The position numbers and the translations under genes are program-made. The notes under the pieces are model-generated. The model searched no databases, was not told where the DNA came from, and was given only the letters and a program-made list of their open reading frames with translations. A DNA stretch of 37,504 bases from the NCBI GenBank assembly GCA_023345925.1, contig JAJQQN010001113.1, positions 1 to 37,504 on the forward strand, in the 5' to 3' direction. This DNA comes from Vannella sp. Taxonomy: Eukaryota. Of this stretch, positions 4,567 through 37,504 are shown piece by piece (the stretch's first letter is position 1; every line of letters starts with the position of its first letter).

Positions 4567-6894
4567 TTAAAGCTTTTGCGATTCGGCGATCTCGCGGAGA
4601 AGACGGGCTCGTTTGATGTTCTTACGGCGGAAGCAAAGTTCTGTTGCAATAACACTGATTCCTACCAGGACAATGGCACCAGCCACCATCCCTAGAGAGA
4701 CCCAAGCGAGCGTAGTTTCTGCACTTGAAGATTGACCGCCATTTCCTCCGGTCAGGAGCAACGCAAAATTAGTGAGATGTTTTGTTTCACCACAAAGCTG
4801 GCCCTTGTTTGTCTGTAAAAGGGACTCATCCTCGCACTCCCATTTGGACTTGCTTTCGTCGTAAAAGCTCAAACAATATCCCCCGTTGGACTGATCGGCG
4901 CTTGCAGGTGAAAAGCAAACAATCAAAGGTTCATCCAGCTTGGTAATGATAGTATTGTTGCTGACATCCAACAAGACGATGTCAAATATGATTCCTCCCA
5001 GAGTCGGGCGGAAGAAGTCCTCAGGTACCTTTGAGATCGCTGTGACGGTCAGAGTAGTGTTTGGAACTTTTGTCAGGCCCAAAGGTATCAACAGTGAACC
5101 TATAACCTCTTCATCCGAGGATCTTAAAGTCACGAATCCGGTCTCCAGAATCAGAATTTTGGAAAAGTCGCAAGTTTCGCAATCGCTCTCGAGAGCTCTC
5201 ACGATAGGATTCGGGGTTGAAGAATCCGAGAGCGTTGAGGAGGATGGGTTTGAAGCTAGATTTGAAGGACCGAGCTGGGTCGAACTTGAAGTTGATGTTC
5301 TGCTAGAACTTTCTTCTCCCGATACTGACACCGAGAGGCTCACCAAAATCACACTAATGGATTTTTTGCTCAAGGAGCGACTCCTGCTGACCAAGGGGAC
5401 AAAGCTCGTTTGTGTTGATGAGAATAAACTGGATTGGCTTCCTATTGGCGCACTCGCGGTTGGGCTACTTCTCGTTGGAATTGGAGTGGGAATTTGGGAG
5501 GATTGAGTGCGAGATATGCTTATTCCAAATGAATTTGAAGATGCGATGGTGGCTGAAGCGATTGAGAGACTGGTTGCCACGCTTTGAGACGTCTCGCTTG
5601 TAGGAGTGGATACCGCCGAATTACTTTCGATCGTTGACACACTGGCGGGTACGGGTGAGGAAGGGCTGGCCATCGAGACCTTAATCACTGACACGGACGC
5701 AGAAAAACTTGCAAAATACGATCCGCTTGGAGACATGCTAGCAGAAAAGCTGACCATTGGTGATGTGCTAGAAGAATTGGAGCTTGCTATCACTGTTGGA
5801 AAAGGCCTGCTAATTGAATCGGTTCCAGACGAAGAAATCGATCCGCTGGGCATGATTGATCCGCTAGGAGATGGGGAGAAGCTGGCTGCCACTGTTGCAA
5901 ACGGTGTCTCGCTGACCGAAGAGGTCATTGAATCAGTTCCCGACGAAGAAATCGATCTGCTGGGCATGATTGATCCGCTAGGAGATGGGGAGAAGCTGGC
6001 TTCCACTGTTTCACTGACCGATGAAGTCATTGAATCGGTTCCTGACGAAGAAATCGATGCGCTGGGAGACAGGCTAGCAGTTGGAGAACAAGAAGGAGAA
6101 TTGCTATTGGATGGACAGGCGCCATTGGGATCACAATATCCAATCTGATAGTTCGAGGGCGGGACTGATGAACAACTGAAGTTTTGTCCAGATAGATTGA
6201 CGCCCTCGACTGCTAAATCGAGAGTCCCAATTGGGATGACCCCACAAAGGTTGTTTCCACTCAGAGATACCTTTTTCAAACGGGAGAGCTCCGGCCACTG
6301 CTGCAAGGATCCTGTCAGTTGGCTAGATCCAAAAGGCCTGGCATCGATCGATCTACTCAAAAGTTAACATTGGGCATTGAGGAGGCTGAATTTGAAGTCC
6401 CCTACATTACAGATAGGAGAGGGATGGCCGACCAGGAGGGAAGGCTTCCCGTCAGCAGATTTCCATCTAAAATCCTTTGCAAATGTTAAAAGCCGTTCCA
6501 GAAAGCATGAAAACTCACAATATCTCCAGACTGGAGAGATTGAACCATTCTCTCAGGGTTCCATCGATTGAGTTGTTTTGTAAATTCCTTCTGCAGATGA
6601 GAAGAGATAAGAGTAGAAGGTAAACTCTCACAAGTACTGCAAATCGGGAAGGTCCAGCTCAGGCAGAGGCCCCGTCAAGTTGTTACTTGGCAGATTGATC
6701 GATGTTACGCTACAAGCCGTGCAACTAACTCCGTACCAACTGCAATGGTCCTCCTCCAGGCTCCATGTTCTTATCCAAGATTCTCCCTGCAACTCTTGGT
6801 AGAAGGCGACCAACATGTCATGATCAGATTGAGGGGTGAAGCATGCGTGCACTAAGAGTATCACGGAGCTTAGAAACGTCAACCAGGCCCACAT
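4567..6894 (-). CDS. Type I membrane protein: signal peptide-LRRNT-LRRs-Ser/Thr stalk-GAIN/GPS-single TM (paralog A; exons 6894-6632, 6587-6519, 6474-6406, 6352-4567)
   Basis: Signal peptide MWAWLTFLSSVILLVHA; LRRNT (DHCSWYGVSC); LxLxxNxLxGxLP repeats joined in frame by three phase-2 GT-AG introns; Ser-rich stalk; GPS motif CLSFYDESKSKWEC...LCGETKHLTNFALLL; TM LAWVSLGMVAGAIVLVGISVIA; short basic tail. Confidence 0.85.
5805..6062 (-). repeat. Imperfect coding tandem repeat (~102-114 bp, ~2.5 copies) in the Ser/Thr stalk of paralog A
   Basis: GAAGAAATCGAT recurs at ~5831, ~5945 and ~6047; the first two copies share the longer GGCATGATTGATCCGCTAGGAGATGGGGAGAAGCTGGC. Peptide unit approx. SISSSGTDSMTSSVSET..ASFSPSPSGSIMPS. 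Confidence 0.85.
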
Positions 6895-7413: not shown

Positions 7414-10400
7414 CTACAACTGTTGAGAATGGGCGGCAATCTCACGAAGAAGGCGGGCTTGTTTGATCGTCTGATGGCGGAAATAGATTTCCGTTCCAAT
7501 CACGCTGATACCTACTAGAAGAATGGCGCCAGCCACCATTCCGAGAGAGACCCAAGCGAACGCGGTTTCCACACTCGAAGATTGACAAACGCTACCGCCT
7601 CCATTACCGCCACTTCCTCCAGTTTTCCCGGTGAGAAGCAACGCAAAGTTGGTAAGGTGGTCTGTTTTGCCGCAAAGCTGGCCCTTGTCTGTTTGTAAAA
7701 GACACTCGTCTTCGCACTGCCACTTGGACTTGCTTTCGTCGTAATAGCTCAAGCAATATCCTCCATTGGACTTTCCCGTGCTTGGAGGTGAAAAGCAGAT
7801 AGTCAAGGGAGCCTCCAGTGAGGTAATGAGATTGTTACTGGAATCCCTTAATACGATATCAAGGATGATTCCCCCGAGAGTCTGGCGGAAGAAGTCCTGA
7901 GGTACGTTTGAGACAGCAGTGACAGAGAGAACCGTGTTAGGGAGGTTTGTCATGCTTCGGGGTATCAACAGTAAACCCACAACATCTTGAGAAGAAGAGT
8001 TCAAACTCACGAATCCGGTCTCCAGAATTTGAGAACTTGAAAAGTCACAAGTTTCGCAATCGCTCTCAAGAGTGTTCACAATTGAATTTGGAGCGAACGA
8101 AGGGACTGATTTCAAAAGCGTAGGTGACGAGGAGTTTGAAGGTACAATCGGAGGACTCATTTGCGCCGAGCTGGGCAACTTGAGGAACGTTGAGGTGCCA
8201 TCTAAACTTTCTGCAGACCCCACCGATCTTGTAGATTGACGACCAATTGCCGATGGACTGAAAGTTGATGTCAGACTCTCTCTTTCAGAAGTGAATTCGA
8301 GCGAGCTGCTTTCGGTTGCGGTTTCGGCTACAATTTGAGTCAATGATATCGTCGAGCTGGAGTCTGCAGAAGGATTTTCCGTCATTGATGATCCACTGGG
8401 AGATGCAGTCGTGGAAAAGCGGGAGCTGACACTGACAGAAGGAGTTGCCGTCATTGATCCTCCACCGGGCGATTCGGTCGTGAAAGGGAAGATGGAAGGA
8501 CTTGCCGTCATTGATTCACTCAGTGAGTTGGATGCAGTGAAGCTGGAACTTACACTGACAGAATGAGTTGCCGTCATTGATTCACTCAATGTGTTGGATG
8601 CAGTGAAGCTGGAGCTCACACTGGGAGAAGGAGTTGCCGTCATTGATTCACTCAGTGAGTTGGATGCAGTGAAGCTGGAGCTCACACTAACAGGAGGAGT
8701 TGCCGTCATTGATTCACTCATTGAGTTGGATGCAGTGAAGCTGGAGCTCACACTAACAGAAGGAGTTGCCGTCATTGATCCACTCTGTGACATGGATACC
8801 GAGTAGCTGGGGCTCCTACTAACCGTAGTTGATGGGCTAGGAGAATTAGTTCCAGAGTAGCTAGTGGTTGCACTTTCAGAAGGTGTTTCGCTTGATGTGG
8901 AGGTTTCCGAAGGAGTCTCGGACGAGGAAGGGGTCAAAGAAGATGATGGGGAGTTGCTGGTAGTTGGGCAGGCCCCTGCAGGATCACAACGGTCGAACTG
9001 GTAAGTATTTGGCACGGGTAAGGTGCAATTGAAAACCTGTCCAACGAGGTTAACGCTATTGAATGGAACACCAAGCTTTGCAATAGGAATATCGCCACAA
9101 AGATCGTTGCCTGTGAGGGAGATGCTCCCTAGCTGGGTTAGCTGCGGCCATTCTTGCAAAGAGCCGGTCAATTTCTCTCCAAAAACATGAGCATTGATCG
9201 ATCTACCGGTGGTTAGAAGAAGACAAAACTCGAATATGATGTCCCCACATGATCTCCAGTTTGGTAAGTGTGGACCAGCTTGGCAGACTTCCCGTGAGAT
9301 AATTCTCATCCAAAATCCTTCACAACTTCAGATTAAGTGCACAGTACCCAAAAAAACTAACATTGTCACGAGATTTGCGAGATTCTTCCACTCGGGCAGA
9401 GTTCCTGTGATTTGGTTCTTTTCCAAGGATCTTGCATCCGCCAATGGAATCAGTCCAGAAGGCATCCTCTCATTGGCCAACTTACAAGAATGTGAGATTT
9501 GTTAGGCTATTCCACTGGGGTAACGCCCCTGATATCATGCAGGATCCCAACTTCCTTTGAGGGGTGTTAGTGTTTTAGTGAACAACACTCCACAAAAAGA
9601 GCTCACAGAGTGGTTAAGTTAACCAGGCAACTCCACTCAGGAAGTTGTCCAACGAGATTGGAATTCTTTTCCAAAACTCTGCTTTGTATCAATAACAAAT
9701 ATTGAGAGAAGAGAACTCACAGTGTGGATAACCCCGTCATATGACAGAAATCACGAAGGGTTCCATCGATATAGTTATTCCTCAAATTTCTGAAAGAGGA
9801 TCCAAAGGGCTGAGGATCCTTTCTTTGGGTAAAGGAGGAGTCCACTCACAAGTAGGTGAGCTGAGATAGAGATCTCCACTCCGGAAGAAAGCCGTCGATA
9901 TTGTTATCTGCAAGATCTCTATCAAGATGTTAGGAGAATCCAACAAATGAGGTGCAAACCCACAGGTACGTGAGTTGAGAAAAAGAAGAAGTCCACTGCA
10001 AAATCAACCCATTCAAGGAGTTTTTCGCCAAATCTCTTCTTTTCTGGTCAGGAAATGTTGAACTCCGAATGAGGAAACTAACAAGTGGGTGATCTTAGTC
10101 AGGTTGGTCCATTCTCTTAGAGGGCCTTCAATAGAGTTGTTATGTAAATCCCTTTCACAGATCATTAGACTCAAGAGGATGATAGTTACTCCTGTACTCA
10201 CAAGGACAACAACTCAGGGAGGTCAAGCTCAGGAAGAGCACCGGCCAGATTGTTACTTGGGAGAGTGATCGATTCTATACTCTCTGAAGCAGTGCAATGA
10301 ACTCCGGTCCAAGAACAAGGTGGCTCTGACAAGTTCCATTGCCTCTCCCAATTAGCCCCTGACAACGCTTGATTCAAGGCGACCAACGAATCCTGCTCAT

Positions 10401-18696: not shown

Positions 18697-21600
18697 ATGT
18701 CAGGCGATCTGGCAAGGGAGGCTCGGGGAAGGAAGAGGAGCGATCTGTTAGAGTCAGAGAATGCGGAGTTACAAAGATTGATTGCAGAAGAGAGGAGGCG
18801 GTCGAGCGATGCGCAAGAGCGGGATGCTGCTGTTATCAATCGTCTACAGAACAGCGAGATGCGCCTTTCTCGTCATCTTGTCGACCTCGAGGCCCAATTA
18901 CGAGAGGAAAGAGGTACGAACCTACTTGACAGTTAAGTGACTCTGCTGAATGAGAGCTAGACCTCGCCAACTGGCAGAAAGAGCAGCTACAGGTACTCAA
19001 GAAGTGCGAACTTACCTTGGACGATCTGCAAAGCCAACGAGCTGGTTTAGATCTCACCATGGAAGAGATGGGGGCCAGGCTGGAGGAGTACATCCTGCGC
19101 TACGAGAGCGACCAACGAAGGATCGCTCAATTGGAGCTTCAACTGACCTCCTCTTCAGTTTCAGATCCATTGACAGAGGCTGTTGTGTCAGAGGAACTTC
19201 TCTCCGTGGAGGAAGATACAACTGTGCTGCAGGAGAGCGAGTCATCAAGAGAGAGCGCCCAACAGCGCCAACAAACACAGGCTTTGCAGCAGGAGAAGGC
19301 TACCTTACTCGAGATATTGGAGGAAACTCGCGCCTCCCTTCGTCGCGCTGTTCAGCATTCAGAGCAACTTCAAGACTCCCTCCGAGACTCTTCAGGAAGA
19401 GTTGAACAGGGCCAGTACGTTCAAAGGTTGATGCAACAGGAGCTCCGAGATACTCAAAAGGAATTGAGAAGCTCCCACCAGTTCAACGCTACTTTACAAC
19501 GGGACATCGAGCAACGCTCTCGCGAGGCCAACCAGCTTCGAGCCTCGCTTGCTGCAGAGAAAGCCCTCAAAGAGGCTCAGTTACGAGACCTCCAGGCCTC
19601 TCAAAAGGCTCTCATAGACTCCCAAAGATCCCATTTACTTTCAAGCAATGCAATGACTTGTGAGATTCAGCAACTGACTCAGTCAGTCGAAGAGATGCGA
19701 GGTGAAGCACTCTGTTTCGCAGAGATTGCTCCTGGAAGTGACCAAAACATCTTATATTCTCCACTTCAACTTCGCATAAGTGAGCTCGAGAGGGAACTTA
19801 ATGCAGAGCGCCAAAGAACCCAATCAGTTCGTGAACTTTATGAGCATCATCAAAGTGTTGCCAAGGATCATGATGCGGTGATAGCCCAGCATTCAACCTA
19901 TTGCGCCGATTTACTGAATATTCAACAGCAGCTTGTTGAGGTCAACAGCTCCCTCACTCAACAAGTGAGTCTTCTGGAAGAAAAAATCGCTTCCCAAGAC
20001 CTGCATCAATCTAGTCATGCCGTTGATGGAAGTTTATTGCCTATTTCAGAGGGTAACGAACCTAAAGCTGAGTTTGAAGACCACTTAGAAATCAAAAGAC
20101 TACAGAAAGAGGTGGAATCTCTCAAACAACAAAACACTGCCATAAGGGAGCGATTAGAAGAGAACATCCTATCACTCAATCAGGAATATGAGTCCCACAT
20201 TCCTGTTTCAAATCCTCTCAACACCTCTCTCCTCTCTGAATTTCAGAATGAAAAAGAAAAGAACAAGATGGCGCTTCAAGTACTTGAAGAGATTCGTGGA
20301 GAACTTAAAACTGACCGTCTTTTCATCACAACTTTGCAGCGAGATATTGAGCAAAGATCACGAGAGACAAATCAACTTCGGGCTTCGGTTAGTGCGGAGA
20401 AAGCTCTTAGACTCGCCCAGGCTCAAGACTGTCAAGATTTACGCAAATCTTTGGCGGACACTCAACGATCTCACTTGCTGATGAGTAATTCTATGGCTCT
20501 AGAGATTCAGAAACTGGAACTCCAGGTGGCAACACTTTCTCTCGCCCAGCAATCAACAGAAGCTGAAGCCCAAATCCTGAGTGAACCCCAACAAGTAGCT
20601 GAGATTCCCAATCTCCAAACTGAAAATGAGTCACGACACAATGAGTTGCTTCTCTTGCAAATGAGAGATTCAAACGACTCACTCCTCCAGCGAGTGAGCC
20701 TTCTTGAAGAGAAAGTCTCTTCTACAGAGCAGGAGCTCTCCATCAAACAATCACTGATCTTGGAGTATCAAGAAGACGGCAGAAAGCTTCAGGCTGAGAT
20801 GGAGTTGTTAAGAGAGCAGGTTCGAAGTTGTTCTCTTCTTCCAGGTGATCTGGATAAGGGACGATCAGGACGCTCTCAGATCTCTTCACAAAAAACCGAA
20901 AATCTTGTTGAAAGACTTACGGAAGAAGTTAACTCGCTGAAGGGAGAAAAAGAAGCCATTCAGCAACGATTGAACGAAAGCCTTCTATCTCTTGACAAAG
21001 CAGTTTCGTCCTCTTCAAAAGAACTTGAAAGACTGATCCAGGAATCTTCCACCAGGGAAATGCTTCTCCAAGAAGAACAGCAAAGGCACATTTCGACACA
21101 ACAAGAGCTGCACAATGTTAAAAAAGAGATCAGAAGCGCCCAGCAGTTCAATGCGACTCTTCAGCGAGATATTGAGCTTCGATCTCGAGAGGCCAATCAG
21201 CTTCGATCCTCTGTTGCTGCAGAGAAAGCTCTTAATGAGTTGCAGATGAAGGATTGTCAGAATTTGCGCAAATCTCTTGCAAATGAGCAGAGATCTCACG
21301 TGCAAACTAGCAACTCCATGGCACAAGAGATCCAACAGCTTCAGGAAGCCCTCTCGCAGACCAAAACTTCCCCGTTGGAAGATGACAGCCGTTTCAAAGA
21401 TCTCCAACAGCGGCTCTTTGAATATGAGAGAGAGCTTGTTTCGGATCGTTCGCAGAACCGAGAATCACCACTGCTTAATGAGCAGAAAGCCGTCCAGGAT
21501 CAAGATAGTCGTTCTAATCATCCTGCCTCCCAGGAAGGAGGCGATGGTTTCTTTGCTCGAATCCAGGAAGAATTGGCAGTTTTGAAGAGGGAAAAACAAG

Positions 21601-24600
21601 CTATTCAGGACCAATTGGAGGAGAGCATCATTTCTTCCGATAGGGCAGTTTCCTCTGTCTCTGAACAACTTGCTCGGGCAAAAGAGAACTTTGTCCGAAC
21701 AGAAGCGGCTCTACTTGAACAGATAGAGAGTGATCAGCGAAAGCACGTGGTAGTACAGCAAGAATTGACAGTTTTAAAGAGGGAAAAGCAAGCTATTCAG
21801 GAGCAATTGGAGGAGAGCATCATCTCTCTCGATAATGCAGTTTCTTCTTCCTCTAAACGACTCGCTGGAGCTATAGAAGACTTCGCCCGAAGAGAAGCAG
21901 CTCTACTTGAACAGATAGGGAGTGACCAGCGAAAGCATGTGGTAGTACAGCAAGAGCATCGCAATACTTTGAGAGAGCTCAAGAACCTCCAAGAATTTAA
22001 TGCAACGTTACAGAGAGATATAGAACAGCGCTCTCGAGAGAGCAATCAGTTACGCGCCTCTATCACTGCCGAGAAGGCTTTGCGGGAGACTCAAAAAATG
22101 GAATATCAAGCCGAGTTAAAGACTCTTGCTGATGCACAAAGTATTCCTGTACCTTCTGTCTTGAAAGGGGCTTCCCGTGAGGTAGCGCTTAATATTGATG
22201 AAAAAGCAGTGAGCGAGCAGAATATTCAGGAGAACGTCGCTCAAAATGTATCTCTATCTCAGTTTAGCGAACTTGTTAATCTTCAGCAAGAACAAGTTAA
22301 TCTCAATAGCTTACTTGTTCAACAAATCGGCCTTCTGGAAGAAAAGATTGTCTCTGCAGAGCGCCAAATTGGGGTCGAGCAATCTTTGGCTTCTGAGTAT
22401 CAAAACGCTCTTCAAGCCTCAAATAGGACCTGCAAAGACCTAATGTCTGAGGTTCAATCACTGAAAGAGCAGTTGCAGTATCGCGACCAGTATTATCACA
22501 CCGAAAGTTTGAGGAATAAGCCAGAAATTGCTGTTCCGTTAGGAGATACTGAAAAGCAACGGTTGCAAGACCAACTGGAAGCTGCACATCTCCTCATTAG
22601 AAACACATCCGAATCAAGAGATCTTGCATGCAGACAGAATGAAGAAGAAGTTAAACGGCGAACAGAATCAGATAGCAAACTTGCTGCGATTTTGGAGGAA
22701 CTTCAATTGCTACGGACAGAAAACTCTTCTCTGCACACAACAAAAGCAAGAGCCACTCGAGATGTTGAACAAATGAAGTTGGATCTCATTTCAGAGCGCT
22801 CTCAGAAGGAAAGCCAACTGCACGAAATCGCAGCAATGAGAAGATCTCTGGCAGCCGCCCAGCGATCCAGCTTGGTGACAAGCAATGCAATGGCCGGAGA
22901 AATAGCTCAACTGAATGCGGCGTTGGAAGCATCACAGCGCTCACAATCTCTGCTACCAGACGATCCAGTGCAACTCCCTTTGAGGAACAATACTTCATTG
23001 CTACTATTGCCTGAGAATAATCAAACCCCCGATTTAGAATCTCTGCTTAAGGTGCAGGAAGAGTTTGGAGATCTCCAACAAGCCCACAAAACATTACTTG
23101 AGCTTCAGCAAGACTTATCAGACGTAAATGCTTCTCTACTACAGAAATCTGGGTTGCAAGAAGATGCTGTTCAATCTGCAAACTCTCAGATCTCCTCTTT
23201 GCGGTCAGTCCTCGAGCAACAAATTAGAGCCAATGATGCCTTGCAGAAGGAAAAGGAACATTTACTTGAGCAATGGAAGATCTCGGAAGAACTGATTCAA
23301 GTACAGGCTTCTCAAGTGGAGCTACTTAGAGCGTCGGTGGATCTTGAGGCAGAGACAGCTCATTCTTCAGTTCTGGAACATGAAGAGACGTTGTCCTTTG
23401 AAGAGGCAATTCAATTTGGTAAGAATGAGCTCGCAAGAGAAGTTGAAAGGAGGAATCATCTGGAGGATCAGTACGATGATTTATCAAAGGAGTGGAAGGA
23501 CGTTTGTAAGAAAAACATAGCACATGAAAGAGAAGCAGGTTTACGTCTTCAACAGTTGGAGCAACTTAAGATTGCTCTCACTGCTGAGCGCACTCAAAAA
23601 GACTCTTTGAGTAGAGATATTACTGCCCTGAGGAAGTCTTTGGCTTCTGCACAACGGACGAGCTTGATAACAAGTAACAATATGGCTCTAGAGATTCAAC
23701 AGCTCACCGCAGCATTAGCTGAAAGAGGTTCTTTGGTCCAGCAAAGATCTTCTCAAGCTTTTGTTGAACACGAAGGATTAGCTCGGCTCACACAGCTCCA
23801 GGAAGAGTTAGAGGAAGAAAGGAGACAGACACGACAATTACACCTCCGTATCGAGTCCCTACAAGAGCAGGAACAACAAGAATCTGAACTTCAGAAAGAA
23901 AACGATCAATTGCGAGAGGCCAATCAATCTTTGATTGAGCTCCAACAACAGCAGCTTGACCTCAGTGAAAATCTTGTTCAGCAAGCTACATCCCTTGAAC
24001 AACAACTCGTCACTTCACATCAACAGATTGAGCTCCTTGAATTCAGATCCTCTCAAGAACAAGGTGCTTTGTCGGTAGCACAAGAGCGCAACACTCTCCT
24101 TCAACAGCAGTTCTTAGGCATTGAAGAGAGATGTTCCAATTTAATTCAATCTCATTCAAAAGAAACAGAAGCTCTTCAAACTCGCTTCCAACAATCACTT
24201 GAGAAGCAACAGAGAGAGTTACGTACTTCTTATGAGCAGTTGCATGATGAAAGGGGTAAGAATCAGCAACTGCTTGACCGACTTCAAATGCTCGAAGTCC
24301 GACTTCAACAGAAAGATGAAGCATTAAAGGCTCAAGAACTTCGTTGGTCTGAGAACCAGAGGTACTTGAAACAACTTGAGATGAATTTAATGGATGCAGA
24401 GCGTGAGAAGGAACTACACTTACGACAGCTCGCTTTGATTGAAGAGGCTCACTTGTCTGCTAACAAGCAAGTCTTAGATCATCACCTCTTTGAAATAGCC
24501 TCCATCCGAGCAGAACTCTCTCCTAATATCGCTAAATTTACTGAGATGGAGCCAGCTTTGTCTGCTGAAACTGATAACTTGCAATTAGCTCAAGAAGAGG

Positions 24601-27600
24601 TCGAAATTCTTCGAGCTGAAACAGCCACACTGTACAGAAGTATTGAAGTGCTTGAAGCCTCAATGCAGGAACTTGAACTCCAAAAAAGTCAAATCAGTAA
24701 TCAACTAGAGAAAACAAGAGGAGAACTGAGCAATGTCAAAGAGATCCCTCCAACAATTCGACAAGTATCTGAAGCGGCTAATGCACAGACTGAGTCCAAG
24801 TTCGTTGAATTTGCATCGATTATTCAGCAACTCCAACAATCGTTGGATGCTACCGAACGGGAGCTACGTATCTATCAACAGGAGAATCAGCGGTTACTGT
24901 CCGAAGCCCACATCAATCATCAGGCGGAGTTGAATGACGCTTCAAATCTATCCCTTCTACGAAAGGTTCAAAATGAATTGGAAGAGCGAGAGGCCACATT
25001 AAGTTCTCTTCGTCATGAAATTATTGTTCTCCAGCAGAATACCTCAGAGAAAGAATATCAGTTAAGAGCTACTCAATCTCATATCAATCGGGAGCGTCAG
25101 TCTTTCACCGCTCAAATACAGCGATTAGAGGACCAATTAAGACTTGAGTCATCTAAAGTGCGTGAAGTTGAGGTACTCAGAAGCGAGTTGGAAGACTCCC
25201 TATTTGCAGCTGTAAACCCGAAGGCAAACTCAGTACAACCTGGTGAGGAATCAGTATTTGAGCTTAACCTAGAACTCCAAGAAGAAGTCAAACATTTACG
25301 GACAGAATTGAACGCCTATCAATCGCAGAAGTTACACAGTGTTTTAGATTCAGATTCAGTCAGGTTGCTTCATCACATAGAAAAGCTCCAAAGTGAAGCT
25401 GTCTCCCTCAAAGACGAAACGGCAACTCTAACTCGCCAATTACAAGAGCAGGTTCAAGAAACTCTTCGAATCAAACGGGAGCGGGAAAATTTGGCAGAAG
25501 AAAGTTCACGGCTACAACGAGAAAAAGAAGAATTAGTCAGCCGTTTGGGGACAGTTGAAGCTGAGCAAGATTCTATTGCCCGCACCCTCAGCGTTTCTCT
25601 CCAGCAAGAGCAGGCACATTCTGAGCAATTAGTTTCTCACCTCAAAGACATGCACTCAGCCCTTTCGACAGGAGAGGTAACTTCTAGAGCAGAGGCCTAT
25701 CAAATTCAGAGTCTGAGTACCGAGTTGCAAGCCAAACAATCCGAGCTTGTTCGCTATCAAATGAGCTTGGCAAAAGAGCTTGCATTTTCGGAGGAACAAA
25801 GTCTCTTATTGAAGCAGATGCAACAGGAACTCTCTCAATGTGACACGAGCGATGCACTCAAAGATGAACAAGTGGTAACATTCCAAGCAGCAATGCAAGA
25901 GCAGTTAACCTCGCTGAAGGGAAAGTACGAAAATTGTTTGGAAGCTTGGGAATCTGATTTAGCTGAGTGGAAGAGCTCTCTGGCATCAGCCCAGATGCAA
26001 GCATCACAAAAAGAACTCTGTCTTACAAGGGAAGTGGAGCAAGCTCTCCAGGAAGTGGCACTGCTTGATGAAGAGAAGCAGTTCGCGATTCGCCGGGCTG
26101 CCGAACTGCAAGCAGAGGCAGAGGGACTGGCTGGTTCGCAGAGGCAACTTCAGCATGCAATGCATGGGCAGCTGAACGCTTTGCATTCATCTTTGTCTTC
26201 AGAGCAGCGCCTTCGTGCGTCACTCGAGCAGCAACTTTTCGAGATTCAGAATGCCTATCATGAAGATCGTGATCATTGGGAGACTCAAACAGCATCACAA
26301 AACTCTGGGCAGCTCTCTAATCTTGATCTGGCTCTATCTGCGTTCCAAAGAGAGACATCCAGGCGTGAGGAGTGCGAGGAGAGATTACAACAGCTGGCTG
26401 GAGATCATGCGGAAGATAAGGAAACCAATAGACAACTCAGGCTGAGACTTCAGCAACACGAAATTGATGCCACTCAAATGCAAACGAGATTAGATCAGTT
26501 ACAAGCCTCTCTCTCGCAGAAGGAGGAGTCTCTTCACTCTACGGATCATTGGGCACACCAGCTGCAAAGAGAGGTTCAGGAAAGCCGTCTTTTACGTCAA
26601 ACAACTGCTCAACAGCTCGCAGATGAGCGACAGAAGGGGACTGAATTGAAAGATACGATTCATCAGCTCTCCGTCCAAATGGAAGACTTGAAACGAAGCG
26701 CAGAAGAATCTCATTTCCATTCTGAGGCAATCGCAGCTGTCTGGGAAAATTCACAGCAAGTCGCAGACTCACACGAATTGCAAATGCAGACCTTACAAAG
26801 CTTAGTAGAGAACTTAGAGGCCCAGACAGCAGCAATGGAACATCGATCTCAGCAAGAGTCTCAAGCGCTCCTGAACCAATCTCAATCTCTTCAGAGAAAG
26901 CTGGAAGCATACGAAGTCGAAATTAATCATCTCCATCTTCAACTGCAACAGCGGGACTCTTTTACAGATAGGCTGCAGGAGCAAATGGGTGCTCAAGCAC
27001 TCCTTCTCAACCAATCTCCGGGCCCCGCCCCAGAGTCTTCCCTGGCAATGCGAGGACTTACTGCTCAATTGGACTCCGCTCTTGAAGCGAACAAGCGATT
27101 GCAACGGGAGCTTCAGCAGCTTCGTTCAATGCCAGATAACCCTGACCAGTCAGAGGAAGCAAACCGTCTCAAAACCCAATTAACTTCATCAGAAACTCTC
27201 ATTCAAGAGCTCAGACTCGCTTTACACGAGGCCCAGCAGACACAACAAACTAGCGAGAAGGATCTGGAACAATGCTTGATCGAACTTGCCCTTTTACAAG
27301 CAACAGCAGATCGAAAGATCGCACTTTGTGAGAATGAGACAATTTCTCGTACTTCTGCTTCTGAAGTAGCCCATCAAGTAACAATGCATCAATTGAGTAC
27401 GTAGATTGATTTTGCCAGATTGTATTTTACTAACTCGCAGTAGTGGAGGAAAGGAAGCGTAATGAGACTCTACAAGCTCATATTTTGGAGCTTCAAATGA
27501 TCCAAGAGAACCATTCTGAAGAAATAAGACGTCTCCAAGAAGTTCGCAATCAGATTCAAGAAGAAGCCACCCAAGAGCGCGGCAGATATAATCAACTTCT

Positions 27601-29674
27601 ACATCGCCACGCTCGTCTCAAGGATGAATTGAGTGACATAACTAAGCACAGTGCTTCAGCTTCCTACACACAGCAAATTCAAAGGCTGAATTCCGAGCTT
27701 TCTGAATCGAATCAACATCGGCAAGCGTCTTCTTATCAAGCTCAAGAGTTGCAAAGGTCTCTGAAAGATGGGGAGATGCAAAACTCTCTCTTGCAACAGG
27801 AGATAACGGAACTCAAATCTGTTCTTGCGGAAAAGGAGTCGCTGAGTGCAAGAGCAGCTGTTTCTATCCAGCATGAGGAGGCCGAATCTGAGTTGGCTCG
27901 CTCCAAAGATCACATTCGGACTCTACAGCAATCAGCCGAGCGATGTGAAACACTCTTGCGAGAGTATAGACAACAAATCGATCAGTTAGTTGACAGCAAC
28001 TTGACACTTAACCAAGATAAGCAAGCTCTCATTGAGGTTTTGAGTACTTTTGAGGATCAACTCGGAGAGGTGCAGACCAATACCGCGCAACTTGAAACTC
28101 AATGGCGGTCCAACATTCAACTTGCTGGGCACACCCAAAGTGAATTAGAGACGAAAGATCGGGAACTTCGTGCTTGCCAACAACGACTGGTTGCTGCTCT
28201 AGAGGCGAGTCGGAGTCTCGAAGTTTCTTTGACACTTCGTGATCAGTCACTTGATACCCAACGATCAACTCATTCTGCTGCCTTAGTCCAGCTCCAACAA
28301 GATGCTCTTGCTCAAAAGAATCATTTCCGCAATTTGGAGCAGCAACTTGATCAGAGTAAAGCAAGCGTACTGGAATTAACTGCTCGGCTCGAATTTAGCG
28401 CTAGGAAGGAATCAGATACAAATTCAAAACTTCGTGTTGCTGAAGAACAATGCCAACGGCTTGGAGCTGAACTAACACTCCTTTCAAGAACCTTGTACGA
28501 CACCAACGAGCACCACACTCTTCTGAAAGCCCAAATGAGTACGCTTCAGCGCCAGTACGATAACCGAATAGAGGAGATCAAACAAACTCATCTGGAAACC
28601 ATCACGTATGCCAACACAAAGCTTCAAAAGACTATTCAACGCTGTTCTCAGGCTGAAAGCAGAACGGAAGATCTCGAAAGCCAATTCGCTCAGATGAATC
28701 ATCATGTGGCCGATCTGGTTCACTTTTTTGTTGATCAGGAATTAGCTTCTGTTTCATCATCGAAAGGTCCGCAGAGTTCTCCGCCTTGGACGAAATCAAT
28801 GGAACCAAGTTCAGGTATTAGTCAGCTCTGGCATTGTATCGACCAGCTGCGTGTTACGTTCATCGCCTCCCAGCAAGAGATTGGCTGCCTAAACAAGAAG
28901 CTATCATCCTTGGTGACTCTGGAGAAAACAAATCGGGACTTGCAAGATTCGATTTCAGCTTACAAAACGCGTGTTGAGGATCTTAATCTTCGGTTGAGTC
29001 AGGATGAAGAGCTTTCCCAAGAAGCAAACAAACAGCGCACTGAACTGGAAAAGTGTCTGATGGCTGACCTGCAAACACTCCGTTCTGAAGTCCAAGAACT
29101 TTCGTCAAAGCTTCACCAACAGACAGAAGAGAATTCTGATCTTCTCCAGAGGTTACATGAAGCTCAACAATGGTCTGCTCGAGCAGAGGAAGAAATTTCC
29201 AGCTTAAATCATCAAGCATCCAGATTCCAGCATTTACTGAAAGCTACACACTTGACTCTTCTCAGAGAGAGTGAATTAGATGAACTGAAAGAGGAGGAAG
29301 AGCAGAGAGAGCAACGCTCAGCGGTAAACGAAGTATCTCAATTGTACTCGCTGAAACAGTCCTATGCTGCAGCATCAGCCGCAGCTTCATCTCGCTATCA
29401 AGACCTCCTCTACCAATTCGAAGAGCTCCAAACTCGCTTACTCTCTTCAGAAGAACACAAAAACCGTGTTGCAGAGCTTCTTCAAGAGAAGGAGGAACTT
29501 CTTGATCAATTATCATCCCTTCAAGCTGAACGTGACACACTGGAGGAGCAAGTGGAAGAGAGAACAATCGAGTTAGAAATGCAACAGCAAATCTTCGAAG
29601 AGGAACAATCCCAGCTGCTCCAACAAATTGCCGCGGACACGGCTTGTTTGAAATCCACAATTCAACTGCAATAA
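18697..29674 (+). CDS. Giant coiled-coil protein, ~3,628 aa (exons 18697-18913, 18961-27396, 27441-29674)
   Basis: Phase-1 introns GTACG..CTAG (18914-18960) and GTACG..GCAG (27397-27440) join the 109-, 2795- and 743-aa ORFs in frame. E/Q/L/R/S-rich heptad pattern throughout; no globular domain recognised. Confidence 0.85.
19440..23720 (+). repeat. ~280-aa super-repeat (about 6 copies) within the coiled-coil gene, including a 192-bp recent duplication at ~21570-21955
   Basis: The QRDIEQRSRExNQLRAS..AEKAL motif is encoded at 19497, 20337, 21162, 22011 (spacing 825-849 nt); the linked SN.MA.EI.QL motif continues in degenerate copies at ~22880 and ~23673. Confidence 0.85.
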
Positions 29675-31049: not shown

Positions 31050-33797
31050 TTATTGAGCGATTCCCTTTCTCTCTTCCTCTTCCTCTTGCTTGAACATCAC
31101 TTCCAAACACACTTCTTGTTGACAACTCAAAGAGTCCGACAATATCTCGCAATCAGAGCGACTGGAGAGAAGGATGTCAGGAAGCCACACAATACTTCTC
31201 AGATTCTGCGTGGGGCGATTCAGTTTGGAACAAACTGCTGTTTGGAGCCATTGCAGAGTAAGAGCCTGCCCTTGAGGGGGAGGTGGGACCAATGAAAAGA
31301 AATTGCTCTCAGCAGCCCGAACTTTGAGACGACCCCAATGTCTTGTTTCGGGAGTGTGCACTTGAACAGAGTCTGTCTCGAGGGAAGAGATAAACCAACT
31401 AGCCAAGTTCTGGTATTCACGGAGGAGGGGTTCGATGTCATTCACTTGAAGGTCGCTGATAGAGTGATGAACAAACGATAATGCCTTGATATGAGGCAGT
31501 TCTTGCTTTTGGGTCATTTTACGATCAAACTCTTCCGGATCAATTCGTAGATCTTCGCCACGAAGCTTCATGATAAATGAAACGCACGAACTTACATTGG
31601 TGAAGTAGTATGCCGCCTCCCCACAAAGCTCAGCTTTAGCAGAGCAGAAGTTTTCCATGTAAAGCAGATTGGATGGTAAATGTGGGGGATTGATTTTGAT
31701 AATGAGATAGATCATGGCAGGTAAGAACTGATCTGCGCCTCCATCTTTAACGTCCAATCGTGAGAGTATGTTATAAAGTGTTTTGCAGGCCGCAAGGAGT
31801 AATTGAAGCTTTGCATTCGGGCAGACGGCTTTGTGCAGAAGTGCAAAGTTTGATGAGGCTTTTTCAAACTCAGGATAGGTCTCAAGTGAGTCAGGAAGCT
31901 CTAAATGGTCGTGCTGAATCCAATCAAGCTGCTGAACCCGATTCAAAAAGGCTTTGTCATTCTCTAATCCTCCTTGATAGGAGAAGATTAGTTGATAGAG
32001 TGGCTTCATCATCATTTCACGCAAATCTTGTCTCAGAACCAGTATCTCATTCTTGGTGGCCTCCGCTGGAAGAGTGAAGAAAGAGCCTCCTAAAACATGA
32101 GAAGTGATTCTTTTGACATTTTTGGACAAAGAAGCCTTGAGTTCTTCTGTTCCGAGAGAGTCAGATATTTCCCGTCTAAGAGAACGGATGGCTTTTTCCA
32201 CCTTGATCTCGAACCGCTTTCTTTTCAGAAGAGGTAACTCTTCAAGGTATCGACTCAACGTTCTGGGCTCATACCTTGAAGTCGTTTCCAGATATGGTCG
32301 GGTTACGACATCATCAATCAGTATAACTGGGTAAATTGAACCTTCCAAAGAAACTCGCCCGTGTTGGATGATCTCAAATCGCATGGTTCGTTGATGATCG
32401 ATGCGACGTGGGTTGTGAGAGATAACAGAAAATTGATTCACGAGTTCGTTACCTCCGTGAAAAACTAAAATGACCTTTTTCTGAAAGTCAATGGTCCCCT
32501 TCTGGCCTCCTTGGGTTGTAAACTCTCGAGCACCATCTGGTAGTAATGTCTCATCGTTTGGAGTGATCCCACAATGCATCAGGTGTGCTGCTACCAACTC
32601 AGGATGGATATCAAATTCACTCAGGATAATATTTGGGGGTAGAAGAATCCAAGAAGTGCCCTGTCTGAGGATGTCCAAAAAGTCTCTGCAATCAACTCTG
32701 ACTCGCAAAGCTCTCAGCAGGAGATTACTCCGCGAATCATTCGCGAGCAAGGATTGATCGTCAGAATCCTGGATTCCTCGGGGAGAAGTTGATTTGCTGA
32801 GTTGATGAGTCTCTTGAATGTTCAAATTCCTCCCAGAGGGGCGTTCACTGGCTGATCGGGCTTTGCCAGAGGGAGTTTTGAGAGTACCCTGAGCCCTTGG
32901 GCGTCTTTGGTCAGACTCTGGTGCCTCTCTCTGTTGAGCTAATACCATTGATTTCCCTGGCTTTTCAGAAACACTTTTCGTTGTTGGTGGTACACCAAGA
33001 GATGACGATGTTCTCGGGGATAACGATAACTGTGGAGACAGAGTTGGTCTTTTGTTAGTTTTGCTGATTTGATCAGGCATCTTCTGGCCCCAGCACTCAG
33101 CTGTGGTGAGTAATTCATGGGGGCTTTCCTCGGTACCCTTGATTTGGTTACCAGAAGTGAGGAACATCTTCAATTTCGTCAAGCCATGGAGGAACTCTGG
33201 TCTCGTGCTGAGTCTGTTGTGTGTGACGTCGAAAACTTCCAACTCTTTGAGCTGAGCTATGGAGCTCGGTATCTCTCGGAGCAAGTTGGCTGAAAGGCGC
33301 AGATGGCGAAGCTGAACCAAACAGCCGATCTCCTCGGGGAGGAGAGAGATGCCGTTGAAGTTGAGGTTCATCTCCTCGATCGACTTTAGATGCGAAAGGT
33401 TGCAAAGGGTTGTAACTCGGTTGTAGCTTAGATCAAGAGAGCGGAGTGAAGCGAGGGAGGGGTGAAAGGAAGCGGCTGTGATCTTGTTGTGGGACAGTTT
33501 GAGTTCGAGGAGCGAAGAGGGCACCGTGCTGAACTCTGCAAAGGTCCGTATGTTGTTTCTAGATAGGTTGAGAGTCTCTAGCAGCGAGAGATGTTGAATG
33601 GAGGGAGGGAGGCACTCCATTTGGTTGGCAGACAAGTCCAAGTGTCTGAGGAAAGGGGAACAGCGTTCAATGGCGAGTAAGGGTGCTACATTTCGTAAGC
33701 TTAACGTTGCAGTGCCCACAATGGAGAGGCTGGTCCCCCGCTCCTCCAAAACCTTCGTCAGGAGGCAAGTTGCCCTCTTCTCCGCTTCGGTTTGCAT
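31050..33797 (-). CDS. LRR-VPS9 (Rab5-family GEF) domain protein with a possible C-terminal ubiquitin-like fold
   Basis: N-terminal LxxLxLSxNxI repeats (~8); disordered linker; VPS9 signature GADQFLPAMIYLIIKINPPHLPSNLLYM...GEAAYYFTN; downstream DLQVNDIEPLLREYQNL helix. Confidence 0.88.
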   Translation of the reverse strand: MQTEAEKRATCLLTKVLEERGTSLSIVGTATLSLRNVAPLLAIERCSPFLRHLDLSANQMECLPPSIQHLSLLETLNLSRNNIRTFAEFSTVPSSLLELKLSHNKITAASFHPSLASLRSLDLSYNRVTTLCNLSHLKSIEEMNLNFNGISLLPEEIGCLVQLRHLRLSANLLREIPSSIAQLKELEVFDVTHNRLSTRPEFLHGLTKLKMFLTSGNQIKGTEESPHELLTTAECWGQKMPDQISKTNKRPTLSPQLSLSPRTSSSLGVPPTTKSVSEKPGKSMVLAQQREAPESDQRRPRAQGTLKTPSGKARSASERPSGRNLNIQETHQLSKSTSPRGIQDSDDQSLLANDSRSNLLLRALRVRVDCRDFLDILRQGTSWILLPPNIILSEFDIHPELVAAHLMHCGITPNDETLLPDGAREFTTQGGQKGTIDFQKKVILVFHGGNELVNQFSVISHNPRRIDHQRTMRFEIIQHGRVSLEGSIYPVILIDDVVTRPYLETTSRYEPRTLSRYLEELPLLKRKRFEIKVEKAIRSLRREISDSLGTEELKASLSKNVKRITSHVLGGSFFTLPAEATKNEILVLRQDLREMMMKPLYQLIFSYQGGLENDKAFLNRVQQLDWIQHDHLELPDSLETYPEFEKASSNFALLHKAVCPNAKLQLLLAACKTLYNILSRLDVKDGGADQFLPAMIYLIIKINPPHLPSNLLYMENFCSAKAELCGEAAYYFTNVSSCVSFIMKLRGEDLRIDPEEFDRKMTQKQELPHIKALSFVHHSISDLQVNDIEPLLREYQNLASWFISSLETDSVQVHTPETRHWGRLKVRAAESNFFSLVPPPPQGQALTLQWLQTAVCSKLNRPTQNLRSIVWLPDILLSSRSDCEILSDSLSCQQEVCLEVMFKQEEEEERKGIAQ

Positions 33798-33994
33798 GAT
33801 CCAGTTAAAAATTGGTCATATATATATGTATAATGCAATGTTTTATTTTCAGAAGACCGAACCAGTTAGTTAGGCCTCAATGCGAGTGGATTTTGAGGGC
33901 ACGGTTGAAGAGTTAGTTCTCTTGCATAGCCAGACCAGCAAATCAAGGAGTGTTTGAACTTGTAAAACATGGACACTTTCGAGGCATTTTCTGC

Positions 33995-36954
33995 ATGTCC
34001 CAAAGCCACTTGAACGCAATTGCGTCTGGGGACCTTCGCGCAATTCAGGCGTTCTTGCGCGCTCACCCAGGGACTCTCAACGAAGTAGGGTTACTTCATC
34101 TGAAAACAGAAAGAGTTAACACAAGCTCACCTTTCGAGCTGCTTTAGGGGGCAAGTGATTCTCAGCTCCTCCCTCCCTTATGATGCCTCTTTCTCAAGGG
34201 ATTCCCTGGAAGAGGAAACCAGCTTACCTTATGGAGACCTTTTAGGAAGTAAGTGACTATCAGTTAGCCTTCCACTCTCTTTCCCCTCACCTGAAGAGCG
34301 GTGCGGGCGACGAATCATGGAGGAACTTACCGTTTGGGAATGCTTAGTGGGTGAGAGACTGATCCTTAGCCCTACCTACCTACCTAGCTTCCTTTTTCTG
34401 AAAGAGGAGTGAGGCTCACCACAATGACTTTAGGTTGTAAGTGGCTAATACATTAACCCCTCCCTCCCTCCCTTGGGGGATGGGTGCAAAGGAGGAGAAA
34501 TCACCTAACCTCATAATGGGGATGCTTTAGTATGTAAGTGGTAGATCGATTAGCCCCTCCCCTTTTGAAGACTCTATCTCGGGTTGCGAGGGAGTAGAAG
34601 AGCTAATCTTTTGGGGGATACTTTTAGTTTGTAAGTCATCTTCTCCCTTATGAAGACTTATCTTCGGTGAGGAATGAGATGGAACACGAAGGAGAAAGGA
34701 GGAAGAACTCACCATTTAGGACACTTAAAGTGGGTAAGTTCTGCAGACGGGAGGAAGAGGTTAGGACAGTGGGTTTCAGCCTGCAAGACAATATTTCGGT
34801 CTTTCTCAAGTCACCAAAAAGTGGCTGCAGAATTATCCTGAAACAGAAACCCCCTTTCCACTCCCTTTCCGTCTGAGGGATTTGTCTGTGACAATTCATA
34901 ACTTAGAACAGACTTTTCTGACCTTTGCTTGTTCTGAAGGGCAAAGCAAAATTGTCAAATACTTGCTCTCGATCCCCGAAATTGACATCAATAAGGTATG
35001 TTTTTTGCTTCTTTATCGAGAGTAACGATCCTCCAGACCGTAAGGCACAGTTTCTCGCATTTTTTTACACCCTTTATCTTCTCATGGAAAGCTCATTGGA
35101 TCGACAACGCGGTAATTTTCCCTCCCTGCAATATCTCTTTGCTGATTTTGGTGCTGATTCGATCAAGAGGGGAGAAGTACTACCTCCGGAATGCATTTAG
35201 AGAGTAAGTGGCTTTTTTCCTTGGTGGAATGAGTGAGAAAGAAGGTAAACTGACTCTTTGGGATACCAATAGTGGGTAAATTAATGATTCATCAACTTCA
35301 TTTGGAAGATAAGAACTCACCTTAAGGCGATAATTTTAGGAAGTACGTGAATAATCTACCAGATACTCTACCTTTGATGGAAAGGATGAAAGAAGAGAAG
35401 AAGGCGAATTCAACCTTTAGGGTCCTTTTAGTGGGTAAGTCCCATATTACTCCTTGACGGTGATGGTGATGAAGGAGATCTTTTAACGGAATGTAATTTT
35501 AGGGAGTAAGAAACTGATCCACTAGCCCTCCCATTGATTTTCGATTTCTTTCGCAAGGGACGGGGAGGAGAAAGCTCACCTTTTGGGCACTATTAGAGGG
35601 TATGTGATCGATCCATCATCCCTTTATGGATTCATCCTTTTTTTCTGTCTCAGTGAAGGAAAAATTCACCTTTTTGGATGCTTGTAGGATGTTAGTGAAA
35701 TACCCGTTATCGTCTTCCTTGAGATGCTTTCATAAGGAAAGAAAAGGACTGACCTTTTTGAGCTCTTTTAGAATGTAAGCTGATAACCCTTTTGATGGAA
35801 TAGAGGGAACTGAAGGAGCTTGAAAAATGCAGACACCGCTCGATATAGCCTTACAGGGATCACAAGGAGATCATCGAATTGCTATTCGCAAAAGGTGGTC
35901 AATGTGCAGTGGTGAGCCTCTTCAATGCAAGAAGTGAGAGCTCACAAAAGTTCAGGAGCAAACCAAGCTCGACGGGTATGTTGCCCGAAGGAGGAGAGAG
36001 GAAGCTCTGCAGATGGAGGTGGAGCTTAGGAAGCAGGCAACCCAAATTCAAAAAATCTTACTAGTACCATCTCGTGTGGCATTCGCTATGGCGTCCAGTC
36101 CCTGCTTACAGAACGAAAATTTGCAGAAATGTTTCATGGACGGACGCTTGCCGTGTTCCTTTTCCCTTCAGCTTCTGTGGGAACCTGTCATTGCTCAATT
36201 GGAACATTTTGGCCAAAAAGTAGCCGCAAAGGAGTCTGCTATTATCAGGCTACAGCAGAAGAGGAATGAATCGTTCCGAAACGCTTGTTCTGCCAAGCAG
36301 CACATTCAAGAACTTTCCGATCGACTAATGGCCTTTGAGGAGGAAGAGCACAGATGTGAAGAAGAGGAGGAGATCCTGAAAAAAGAACTGGAGGAGCTGG
36401 AGGAGATGGACATTATCTCTTTGCTTCCATTTGTTCGTTCCGCTGCAAAGGTAGAGAAGCAGTTGGTCTTTGAGCTTGAAGACAAACTTTCCAAAGACCG
36501 AGATGGTCTCTTTGCCCTTCATGAGGAGGGGAGTCCCAAGTTGTCTCTATTGATGAATTGCTTCGGAGCCGAGAAGAGAACTATCAAGCAGCTGCAAGAT
36601 CTCAATAGCAAGAACTTCATTTCACATAACATGGCAGAGGTCAATTTGTTGGTTTCTGCTTTGCCAAGAGTTCAGCAGACTGTCGTGCGGTACACCCAAG
36701 AACGTCTAAAAAGTGGCAAGTTGCCTTTCGCAGATCATGATTGTGCTCTCTGTGATTGCGAAACGCCCGAAGAGATGGCCAACTTCTTGAGTGAGCATGG
36801 TCTCAAACAGGTCACCGCTGACATTGTACGCAAGGCAGGTGCCTATGGAAGGGGAGCGCTGCTGTTCCTTACTTCTCAAAACCTTCAACTGGGCAACGGT
36901 CAGGCTGAGAAAAGAGCTTTGCGACAATCCCGAGCTTCTCATATCGAGAAATAA
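33995..36954 (+). CDS. Ankyrin-repeat + coiled-coil + SAM-like protein whose inter-repeat loops are encoded by 3-nt micro-exons; apparent frameshift at ~35857
   Basis: Exon 33995-34084 (MSQSHLNAIASGDLRAIQAFLRAHPGTLNE); micro-exon array 1; exon 34912-34995 (TFLTFACSEGQSKIVKYLLSIPEIDINK); micro-exon array 2; exon 35833-35911 (TPLDIALQ/DHKEIIELLFAKGGQCAV, frame break); intron 35912-35955; final exon 35956-36954 in frame with the 313-aa ORF. Confidence 0.75.
34085..34911 (+). other. Micro-exon array 1: seven single-codon exons GGG(34148-50), GAA(34246-48), TGG(34348-50), GTT(34434-36), TAT(34531-33), TTT(34628-30), TGG(34731-33) = G,E,W,V,Y,F,W
   Basis: Each triplet is preceded by a branch-point-like CTCAC/CTTAC/CTAAC/CTAAT plus TTAG/AAAG and followed by GTAAGT/GTGAGA (first one GCAAGT); ~85-105 nt period. 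Confidence 0.85.
34996..35832 (+). other. Micro-exon array 2: nine single-codon exons ACC(35037-39), AGA(35201-03), TGG(35273-75), GAA(35340-42), TGG(35432-34), GGA(35503-05), AGG(35597-99), GAT(35688-90), AAT(35772-74) = T,R,W,E,W,G,R,D,N
   Basis: Same YAG|NNN|GT architecture (donors GTAAGG, GTAAGT, GTAAAT, GTACGT, GTAAGT, GTAAGA, GTATGT, GTTAGT, GTAAGC); no stop codon among the triplets. Confidence 0.85.
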
Positions 36955-37400
36955 GCCGATTTACTCCATTTTGTTTCAGCCCAAATAATAAGCTTCTTGA
37001 ACTCAATTCTTGTTGGTGGGCTTTATTCTGCGTAACAGAAATTGCAATCACAATAGGGTTTCGGGTTAATAGTGAAAAAATGACCGCTGACACCCCTGAA
37101 TGACCGTTTTTGCGCAGTTGCAAGTGAGCAAGCCATTTATTGCGAATAAAGGATCCCCTTTTACGATTGAAGGTTGTTGCTGTGCACATAAAAATCAGAA
37201 TACACAATTCAAATGATCTGAAACGCATCCTCGGAAGCAAGGTTCAACGCGGATAGCAAGTGAGCAAAGTGAGCAAGACACTTTTTGGACATGAAGGCTT
37301 GTCTGGTAGAACCCTGCTATAATATGTTATTGAACGACATACATGGGCTACAATTTTATGCTTGGACTCATTTAATCGATCGTCAACCACTCACAGTAAT

Positions 37401-37454
37401 GAGCAAAGTGAGCAAAGTGAGCAAAGTGAGCAAAGTGTGCGAAGTGTGCAAAAT
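37401..37454. repeat. 9-bp minisatellite (GAGCAAAGT)x4 plus 2 degenerate copies; related copies at ~37255-37277
   Basis: Directly visible tandem repeat. Confidence 0.85.
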
Positions 37455-37504
37455 TGTGGAGATTGAGCCAAGTGATCAGAGTGAGCATGAGGTATAAAAA
37501 CGTT

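Follow-up and report, generated by a model that had tools for sequence, protein, structure and literature searches.

The first 37,504 nt of contig JAJQQN010001113.1 (the window) contain a predicted ankyrin-repeat gene in which 16 codons each appear to form an exon of their own. The question that this locus raises is why so many of these codons encode aromatic residues. The original prediction held that they were selected for ligand contact and not for structure. We find that the palette is more aromatic than chance, splice-site preference or ordinary ankyrin loops yield, and that the excess is mostly a Trp signal in duplicated units. The best explanation, to which we give a probability of about one half, is that the gene belongs to an expanded family with ankyrin, coiled-coil and SAM-like domains, in which loops made from single-codon exons, most of them included, would be long, aromatic-rich and target-binding.

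Predicted single-codon exons between ankyrin scaffold exons

A micro-exon is defined here as a single-codon unit of the form acceptor AG-NNN-donor GT/GC; exons and splicing are predicted from DNA alone. Sixteen such units are found on the + strand, seven in 34148-34733 and nine in 35037-35774. The two arrays lie between three ankyrin scaffold exons, each of which is in phase 0 with its ends at loop ends. The elements of the gene model are as follows.

33995..34084, + strand: predicted exon 1, 30 codons, which holds the start codon and the first pair of ankyrin helices and ends in phase 0 at the loop boundary
34148..34733, + strand: array 1 (ankyrin loop 1), seven 3-nt micro-exons with introns of 83-100 nt, namely 34148 GGG (G), 34246 GAA (E), 34348 TGG (W), 34434 GTT (V), 34531 TAT (Y), 34628 TTT (F) and 34731 TGG (W)
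34912..34995, + strand: predicted ankyrin exon 2, 28 codons, beginning with helix 1 and ending at the loop boundary
35037..35774, + strand: array 2 (ankyrin loop 2), nine 3-nt micro-exons, namely 35037 ACC (T), 35201 AGA (R), 35273 TGG (W), 35340 GAA (E), 35432 TGG (W), 35503 GGA (G), 35597 AGG (R), 35688 GAT (D) and 35772 AAT (N)
35833..35911, + strand: predicted ankyrin exon 3, 79 nt, with a frame break inside
35956..36954, + strand: last exon, 332 codons, open, with a long coiled coil and two putative SAM-like helical domains

The encoded part shows the hallmarks of ankyrin repeats, with helix-turn-helix repeats, a T/S-P-L start and hairpin loops. Ankyrin exon 2 on its own matches Pfam Ank_3 with E = 0.0012, under the curated cut-off. 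The micro-exons supply 16 of the approximately 430 codons of the gene: Trp four times, Arg, Glu and Gly twice each, and Tyr, Phe, Asp, Asn, Val and Thr once each. Six of the 16 are thus aromatic, and every unit lies on the + strand where the original prediction had placed it. There are no stop codons among them, an outcome with a chance of 0.13 given their own composition.

The strict acceptor-NNN-donor pattern occurs at 14 sites in 34085-35832, which comprise 13 of the 16 units and one extra site at 34780; 5000 shuffles gave a mean of 0.51 and a maximum of 5. The density is 8.0 per kb in the array region versus 0.59 per kb on the remaining + strand. When the exon length in the same pattern is set to 0-2 or 4-9 nt, zero or one site is found for each, such that the signal exists only at 3 nt. 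A branch-like pentamer (loose pattern) precedes 14 of the 16 units. Two weaker candidates outside the 16, TGG before GTTTCA and CCT before GCAAGA, are seen at 34770-34782 in a 178-nt intron.

The introns themselves are related to each other, and one of them holds what may be a lost unit.

34085..35832, + strand: repeated intron unit, in diverged tandem copies
35091..35117, + strand: candidate dead micro-exon, proposed from the sequence, inside a 161-nt intron

Each intron unit runs from a GTAAGT-like donor through a pyrimidine stretch and a purine-rich stretch to a CTCAC-like branch site and, about 20 nt further on, a TTTAG acceptor. Upstream flank similarity among the units is 15.8 versus 3.2 for shuffles; the flanks of the T unit (35037) differ from those of the other 15. 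The candidate dead micro-exon has a branch-like site, an acceptor that reads AC, a GCG codon at 35109 and a donor-like GTAATT, and it fits gain and loss of units.

The palette compared with four backgrounds

The easiest null is given by 8,721 codons from 11 open reading frames (ORFs) in the window, which are coiled-coil and Ser/Thr rich. Against it, Trp (4/16 versus 0.9%, P = 1e-5) and the aromatic residues together (6/16 versus 5.2%, P = 1e-4) are strongly over-represented. Permutation of the letters within codon positions leaves the aromatic excess at P = 0.015-0.027. With bases 1 and 3 fixed, the finding that all six T-starting codons are aromatic has P = 0.0001-0.0007.

The third background consists of other single-codon arrays. 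Most of the 113 loci listed from our scans are TAAG-type microsatellites or uniform tandem repeats; with these excluded, 20 arrays were chosen by eye and one duplicate was removed, leaving 19. Their 288 codons include four for Trp and 29 for aromatic residues (Fisher P = 0.0003 and 0.005, respectively, for the comparison with the window). The aromatic share of 0.375 in the window exceeds that of all ten other arrays of at least ten codons, the highest of which reaches 0.26.

The fourth background is formed by 154 loops (966 residues) from 84 of 129 bacterial ankyrin loci, extracted with a regular expression and biased to canonical repeats. Aromatic residues make up 8.0% of these loops (P = 0.001) and 10% of their four variable positions (P = 0.003). 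The bacterial loops also correct the canonical length of about five residues that had been assumed: 120 of the 154 have six, with Asp or Asn at position 2 in 71% and Gly at position 5 in 71%. The window loops (seven and nine residues) and the family loops (5-14 residues) are both without this xDxxGx pattern.

Splice-consensus codons were considered as the cause of the palette and rejected. NAG is found in 0/16 units versus 16/288 codons of the other arrays, and G or T as the last base is alike in the two sets (11/16 versus 205/288). As the other arrays are likewise flanked by AG and GT and differ in palette, splice-site preference does not dictate TGG. Such base preference alone, which was named as an explanation that would refute the original prediction, does not account for the aromatic excess. 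When the three related Trp units are merged into one, aromatic codons still number 4/14 (P = 0.005-0.045).

Relatives with a contiguous coding sequence

The loops can be followed in relatives in which the coding sequence is contiguous. P0052, P0112, P0113, P0114 and the cluster members P0124 and P0125 come from the source 'merc', which we take to be a marine metatranscriptome protein catalogue, while P0115 is a transcript of Vannella robusta (Amoebozoa, Discosea); P0079, from the same cluster as the V. robusta relative, has about 29% identity in the last exon. The assignment of the gene to a likely amoebozoan is based on this one named relative. These contiguous relatives share the ankyrin, coiled-coil and SAM-like architecture of the gene. 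Exon 1 is identical to the N-terminus of P0113 at 16 of 31 positions and exon 2 at 18 of 28 without gaps, and the middle scaffold block has 28 residues in the window gene and in the relatives alike. The variable segments of the relatives start and stop precisely where the arrays of the window do. Pfam Ank scores above the cut-off in P0052, P0011 and P0023, and the full-length relatives P0052 and P0112-P0114 show ankyrin Pfam families only.

Three close paralogs retain 67-72 of 87 scaffold residues and have only one to four residues per loop in common. Their loop lengths are 8+12, 7+13 and 10+14, compared with 11+10 in V. robusta; the second loops of two partial relatives number 5 and 9-11 residues. 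In the three paralogs Trp, Tyr and Phe account for 14/64 loop residues versus 15/261 in the scaffold, and for 26/64 versus 19/261 when Arg is included. The 99 loop residues of six relatives include 19 aromatic residues, 20 Arg and 17 Asp or Glu. Together, Trp, Tyr, Phe and Arg amount to 39/99 versus 16.8% (P = 7e-8, for sequences that are not independent), and Arg alone is in excess over bacterial ankyrin loops (20/99, P = 4e-4). The aromatic share of the window is no different from that of the relatives' loops (P = 0.11).

The predicted structure of P0052 (predicted local distance difference test, pLDDT, 78) was used as a stand-in for the spliced window protein. In this model the variable segments fall in the hairpins between ankyrin helices. 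Foldseek relates it to DARPins, which are the top matches, and to gankyrin with E = 0.003-0.015, probability of about 1, a root-mean-square deviation (rmsd) of about 2-4 Å over about 100 columns and no match at E <= 0.001.

The residues that prevail at interface hot spots are Trp, Tyr and Arg. It is plausible that the loops form a binding surface, which the hypervariable, aromatic- and Arg-rich loops on a conserved scaffold in the relatives support; the hypervariability among paralogs is a better argument for contact than the enrichment. In fungal ANK receptors, the β-hairpin/loop region, described as the binding face of ankyrin repeats, is subject to positive selection (PMC4986451, in excerpt).

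In P0011 and P0023, a Gln read-through that precedes the T-P-L motif was considered as a sign of a shared intron and left uncounted, as an ordinary loop would fit too. The family profile was found in none of 43 pattern matches in viral contigs and in none of 7 in GTDB genomes. A longer fused form of the family was absent among 7,984 scored candidates in what was a weak search.

Points against contact selection

Several observations weigh against a palette shaped by ligand contact in a working gene. The sample is small (n = 16), the residue classes were picked post hoc and several sets were tested on several nulls. Compared with bacterial ankyrin loops, Arg (2/16, P = 0.42) and Asp plus Glu (3/16, P = 0.58) are ordinary, such that from the proposed Trp/Tyr/Phe/Arg/Glu/Asp palette the aromatic part holds on all four backgrounds and the charged part does not. 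Trp, the residue that carries the signal in the window, occurs only once among the 99 residues of the relatives' loops, a difference with P = 0.001. The Trp units also have upstream flanks that are more alike than those of 96% of four-unit sets (P = 0.04), with P = 0.98 for the downstream flanks and P = 0.50 overall. If all four are merged, aromatic codons fall to 3/13 (P = 0.03-0.14 over the nulls); the excess then fades relative to ankyrin loops and other arrays (P = 0.08-0.14), and the fixed-base test gives P = 0.02-0.09. The codon positions are near saturation, with a mean identity of 0.33 versus 0.39 for the spacer, of which 7/22 positions are equally low. This divergence is barely above that of the spacer, and the comparison of micro-exons with flanking introns that had been proposed as a check thus demonstrates no accelerated change within the window. 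Enrichment by itself cannot separate contact from structure because aromatic pairs also stabilise β-hairpins. Finally, ankyrin exon 3 has its first helix in one frame and the remaining repeat in another, and if the gene is spliced as modelled this break would halt translation 50 codons later.

The palette could accordingly be a by-product, in which the aromatic residues stabilise a lengthened β-hairpin or descend from a tandemly copied xGG unit, with no selection for ligand contact. The excerpted account in PMC12291216 has β-hairpins over-representing Trp/Trp, aromatic, cation-π and ionic cross-strand pairs, and array 2 shows a W-x-W alternation. Codon position 2 is G in 8/16 units versus 46/288 codons of the other arrays, as shared ancestry predicts, and the likeness of the upstream flanks of the Trp units points in the same direction; moreover, the final position of the loop in ordinary ankyrins is more often Trp (13%) than any other residue. 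However, a structural role predicts conserved loops, and the loops are the least conserved part among the close paralogs. The relatives achieve their aromatic and Arg richness with other residues (Phe, Tyr and Arg). With the odd T unit left out, codon identity also fails to track the similarity of the flanks (Mantel r = 0.04, P = 0.32); an apparent tracking of flank ancestry by the codons (Mantel r = 0.20, P = 0.03) was produced by this non-homologous unit and was discarded. We regard a pure by-product as improbable.

The frame break in exon 3 raises the further issue of whether the locus is a decaying pseudogene, or whether the units are not spliced as exons at all, with the codon list representing a past state or drift. 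Because the two frames disagree, this copy is likely to be damaged at ankyrin exon 3, or mis-assembled there: P0011 reads the same repeat in one frame, and the second piece in the window is identical to it at 9/15 positions. The decayed unit at 35091-35117 would also fit a dying gene. On the other hand, all 16 acceptors and donors are intact, no stop codon has appeared among the units and the 332-codon last exon is open. An alternative acceptor, placed 5 nt ahead of the last exon, would restore the downstream frame at the cost of a garbled repeat. Even a dead copy must have had its architecture built while it was spliced, and we consider decay or drift very improbable as the source of the palette.

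How the arrays may be used

In the reading that we prefer, a target-binding family with mostly included micro-exons, the units would be spliced as exons in phase 0, with most of them included in each transcript and some skipping on top. Because each unit is one phase-0 codon, the loops could change residue by residue without a frameshift: an intron-codon unit that is duplicated, lost or changed by a point mutation would shift loop length or chemistry by one residue. Variety would then arise chiefly between paralogs and alleles, and selection would favour aromatic and basic side chains on the face with which ankyrin repeats bind. Oligomerisation or the relay of a signal may fall to the coiled coil and the SAM-like domains. 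Skipping of a whole array would leave no loop, and several units would probably be needed if the protein is to fold.

A different use would be a combinatorial splicing library, in which transcripts take subsets of the codons, such that a single gene would encode many binders; the NACHT-ANK genes of truffles are reported to work in this way (in excerpts of PMC4986451, PMC13449251 and PMC9815663, for Tuber). Every unit is frame-neutral, and ordered skipping would allow 124 × 440 distinct loop pairs, or 29 × 234 with both loops at least five residues long. Three units have weak donors (GTAAAT, GTACGT and GTTAGT) and one, at 34151 in array 1, has the sole GC donor, giving four non-consensus donors in total. 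The original prediction took the loop lengths of seven and nine as a hint that subsets are normally used. This runs counter to the full-length relatives, the loops of which have 7-14 residues: the window lies at the short end, and loops as long as full inclusion gives would be normal for the family. In three of three pairs of near-identical catalogue proteins the loops are identical in both positions, a weak point against heavy skipping since the pairs may share assembled reads. Arrays of seven and nine are also short beside the dozens in Tuber. On balance, subset splicing as the main source of variety seems to us possible and rather unlikely.

The last exon

A protein search with the last exon gave 37 matches at E <= 0.001, the window's own included, most of them on short contigs from ENA and JGI; the 50% library gave 78. 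Its predicted structure (pLDDT 91) consists of a long coiled coil followed by two small helical domains. VIA-align superimposes residues 181-254 on SAMD1 with Z = 8.5 and an rmsd of 1.8 over 66 aligned residues, and gives Z = 6.7 for residues 263-332. The top rows from Foldseek are the tandem SAMs of liprin and SARM1, weak at E = 0.55 or worse, and an Atlas search returned liprin SAM clusters as leads only, with scores below 0.9. Pfam SAM_3 is found in 8/37 members at a cut-off of E up to 1 (best 0.0008). These models and matches are suggestive of two SAM-like domains.

Comparison with known systems

Tens of alternatively spliced 3-bp mini-exons have been described in NACHT-ANK genes of Tuber melanosporum (Iotti et al. 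2012, as cited in excerpts of PMC4986451, PMC13449251 and PMC9815663). As there, we are dealing with an expanded ankyrin-repeat family in which runs of 3-bp exons, here at the DNA level only, are the proposed means of varying the recognition domain. The window gene differs in having about three ANK repeats followed by a coiled coil and a SAM-like pair, in its 7+9 units and in its likely amoebozoan, not fungal, origin; for Tuber the mini-exons are reported to be alternatively spliced, and here splicing is predicted from DNA. The gene begins with ankyrin helices, and NACHT is absent from the Pfam families shown for the last exon and for 36 aligned relatives. The window gene therefore resembles the Tuber nank genes in layout and is not a member of that type, because it has no NACHT.

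According to the excerpt of PMC4986451, the ANK/TPR/WD NOD-like receptors (NLRs) of Podospora likewise vary at positions on the inner helices and in the β-hairpin/loop, which form the ankyrin binding face; unlike the window gene they do so by repeat shuffling and point change within ordinary exons and not through single-codon exons. The micro-exon genes of Schistosoma also have frame-neutral runs of micro-exons with exon skipping (PMC4015677, in excerpt; PMC10526429). Micro-exons form most of the coding sequence of such genes, which is not the case for the 16 codons in the window gene. In the NB-ARC-TPR and ROCO-LRR candidate receptors of brown algae the exon structure is similarly suited to varying the surface of a repeat protein, with a whole repeat per exon compared with one residue per exon here (PMC13449251, in excerpt).

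DARPins and loop-extended designed ankyrins combine a fixed scaffold with variable hairpin positions and are engineered. The loops of the window family are natural, and their length varies too.

In the literature searched, from which subscription journals fell outside coverage, there is no report of such arrays or of this family from an amoebozoan or other protist, and codon-sized exon runs in ankyrin genes are published only for truffle NLR-type genes.

Other arrays and neighbouring genes

A metagenome scan for triple micro-exons listed no locus that matched the family by tblastn. The scans contain other arrays. One (L013:5233-7523, + strand) has 31 single-codon exons, rich in Phe, Gln and Glu, directly after a 537-codon NACHT/NPHP3_N ORF, which is a Tuber-like NLR layout in another organism. 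Another (L059:4916-8122, + strand) has 40 single-codon exons for mostly hydrophobic or small residues just before protein kinase domain exons. L022 and L034 (- strand), L027, L036 and L098 hold arrays that are related to each other, reach 34 single-codon exons, favour Tyr, Ser, Asp, Asn, Glu and Leu and have a common intron style; Pfam did not identify the host gene of these five. Further arrays are found at least at L002, L103, L011, L028, L073, L083, L105, L030, L058, L069, L086, L093 and L094. The contigs of these further arrays span 16% to 59% GC, which indicates several unrelated lineages.

At its boldest, the design could amount to a natural DARPin-like amoebozoan library, formed by a large receptor family with ANK, coiled-coil and SAM parts, with aromatic and basic one-codon-per-exon loops and skipping that would give thousands of variants per gene, directed at prey, symbionts or viruses, and with arrays recurring in many unrelated microbial eukaryotes. 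We hold this combined proposal to be doubtful.

The window is eukaryotic, gene-dense and intron-poor. Its remaining features are listed below.

4567-6363 and 7414-9327, - strand: two neighbouring paralogs for Ser/Thr-rich surface-type proteins, which have a juxtamembrane domain that contains Cys and Trp, a C-terminal hydrophobic helix and no Pfam family above the cut-off
8495-8823: 66-nt tandem repeat
18954-29674, + strand: very long gene for a coiled-coil protein, split over ORFs of 2816 and 746 codons that are separated by 30 nt and lie in different frames
31050-33815, - strand: LRR + VPS9 gene in head-to-head orientation to the ankyrin gene, the predicted starts being about 200 nt apart
37400-37487: tandem 9-nt repeat of about ten copies near the window end, with scattered copies upstream

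Implications

With a second family, free of NACHT and from a likely amoeba, the use of single-codon exons to vary the same binding loops would prove to be convergent. The presence of at least 19 other arrays suggests that the design is widespread and has been missed by gene callers. The locus would also offer a testable system for how the spliceosome defines consecutive 3-nt exons, and for receptor variety generated by splicing in single-celled eukaryotes.

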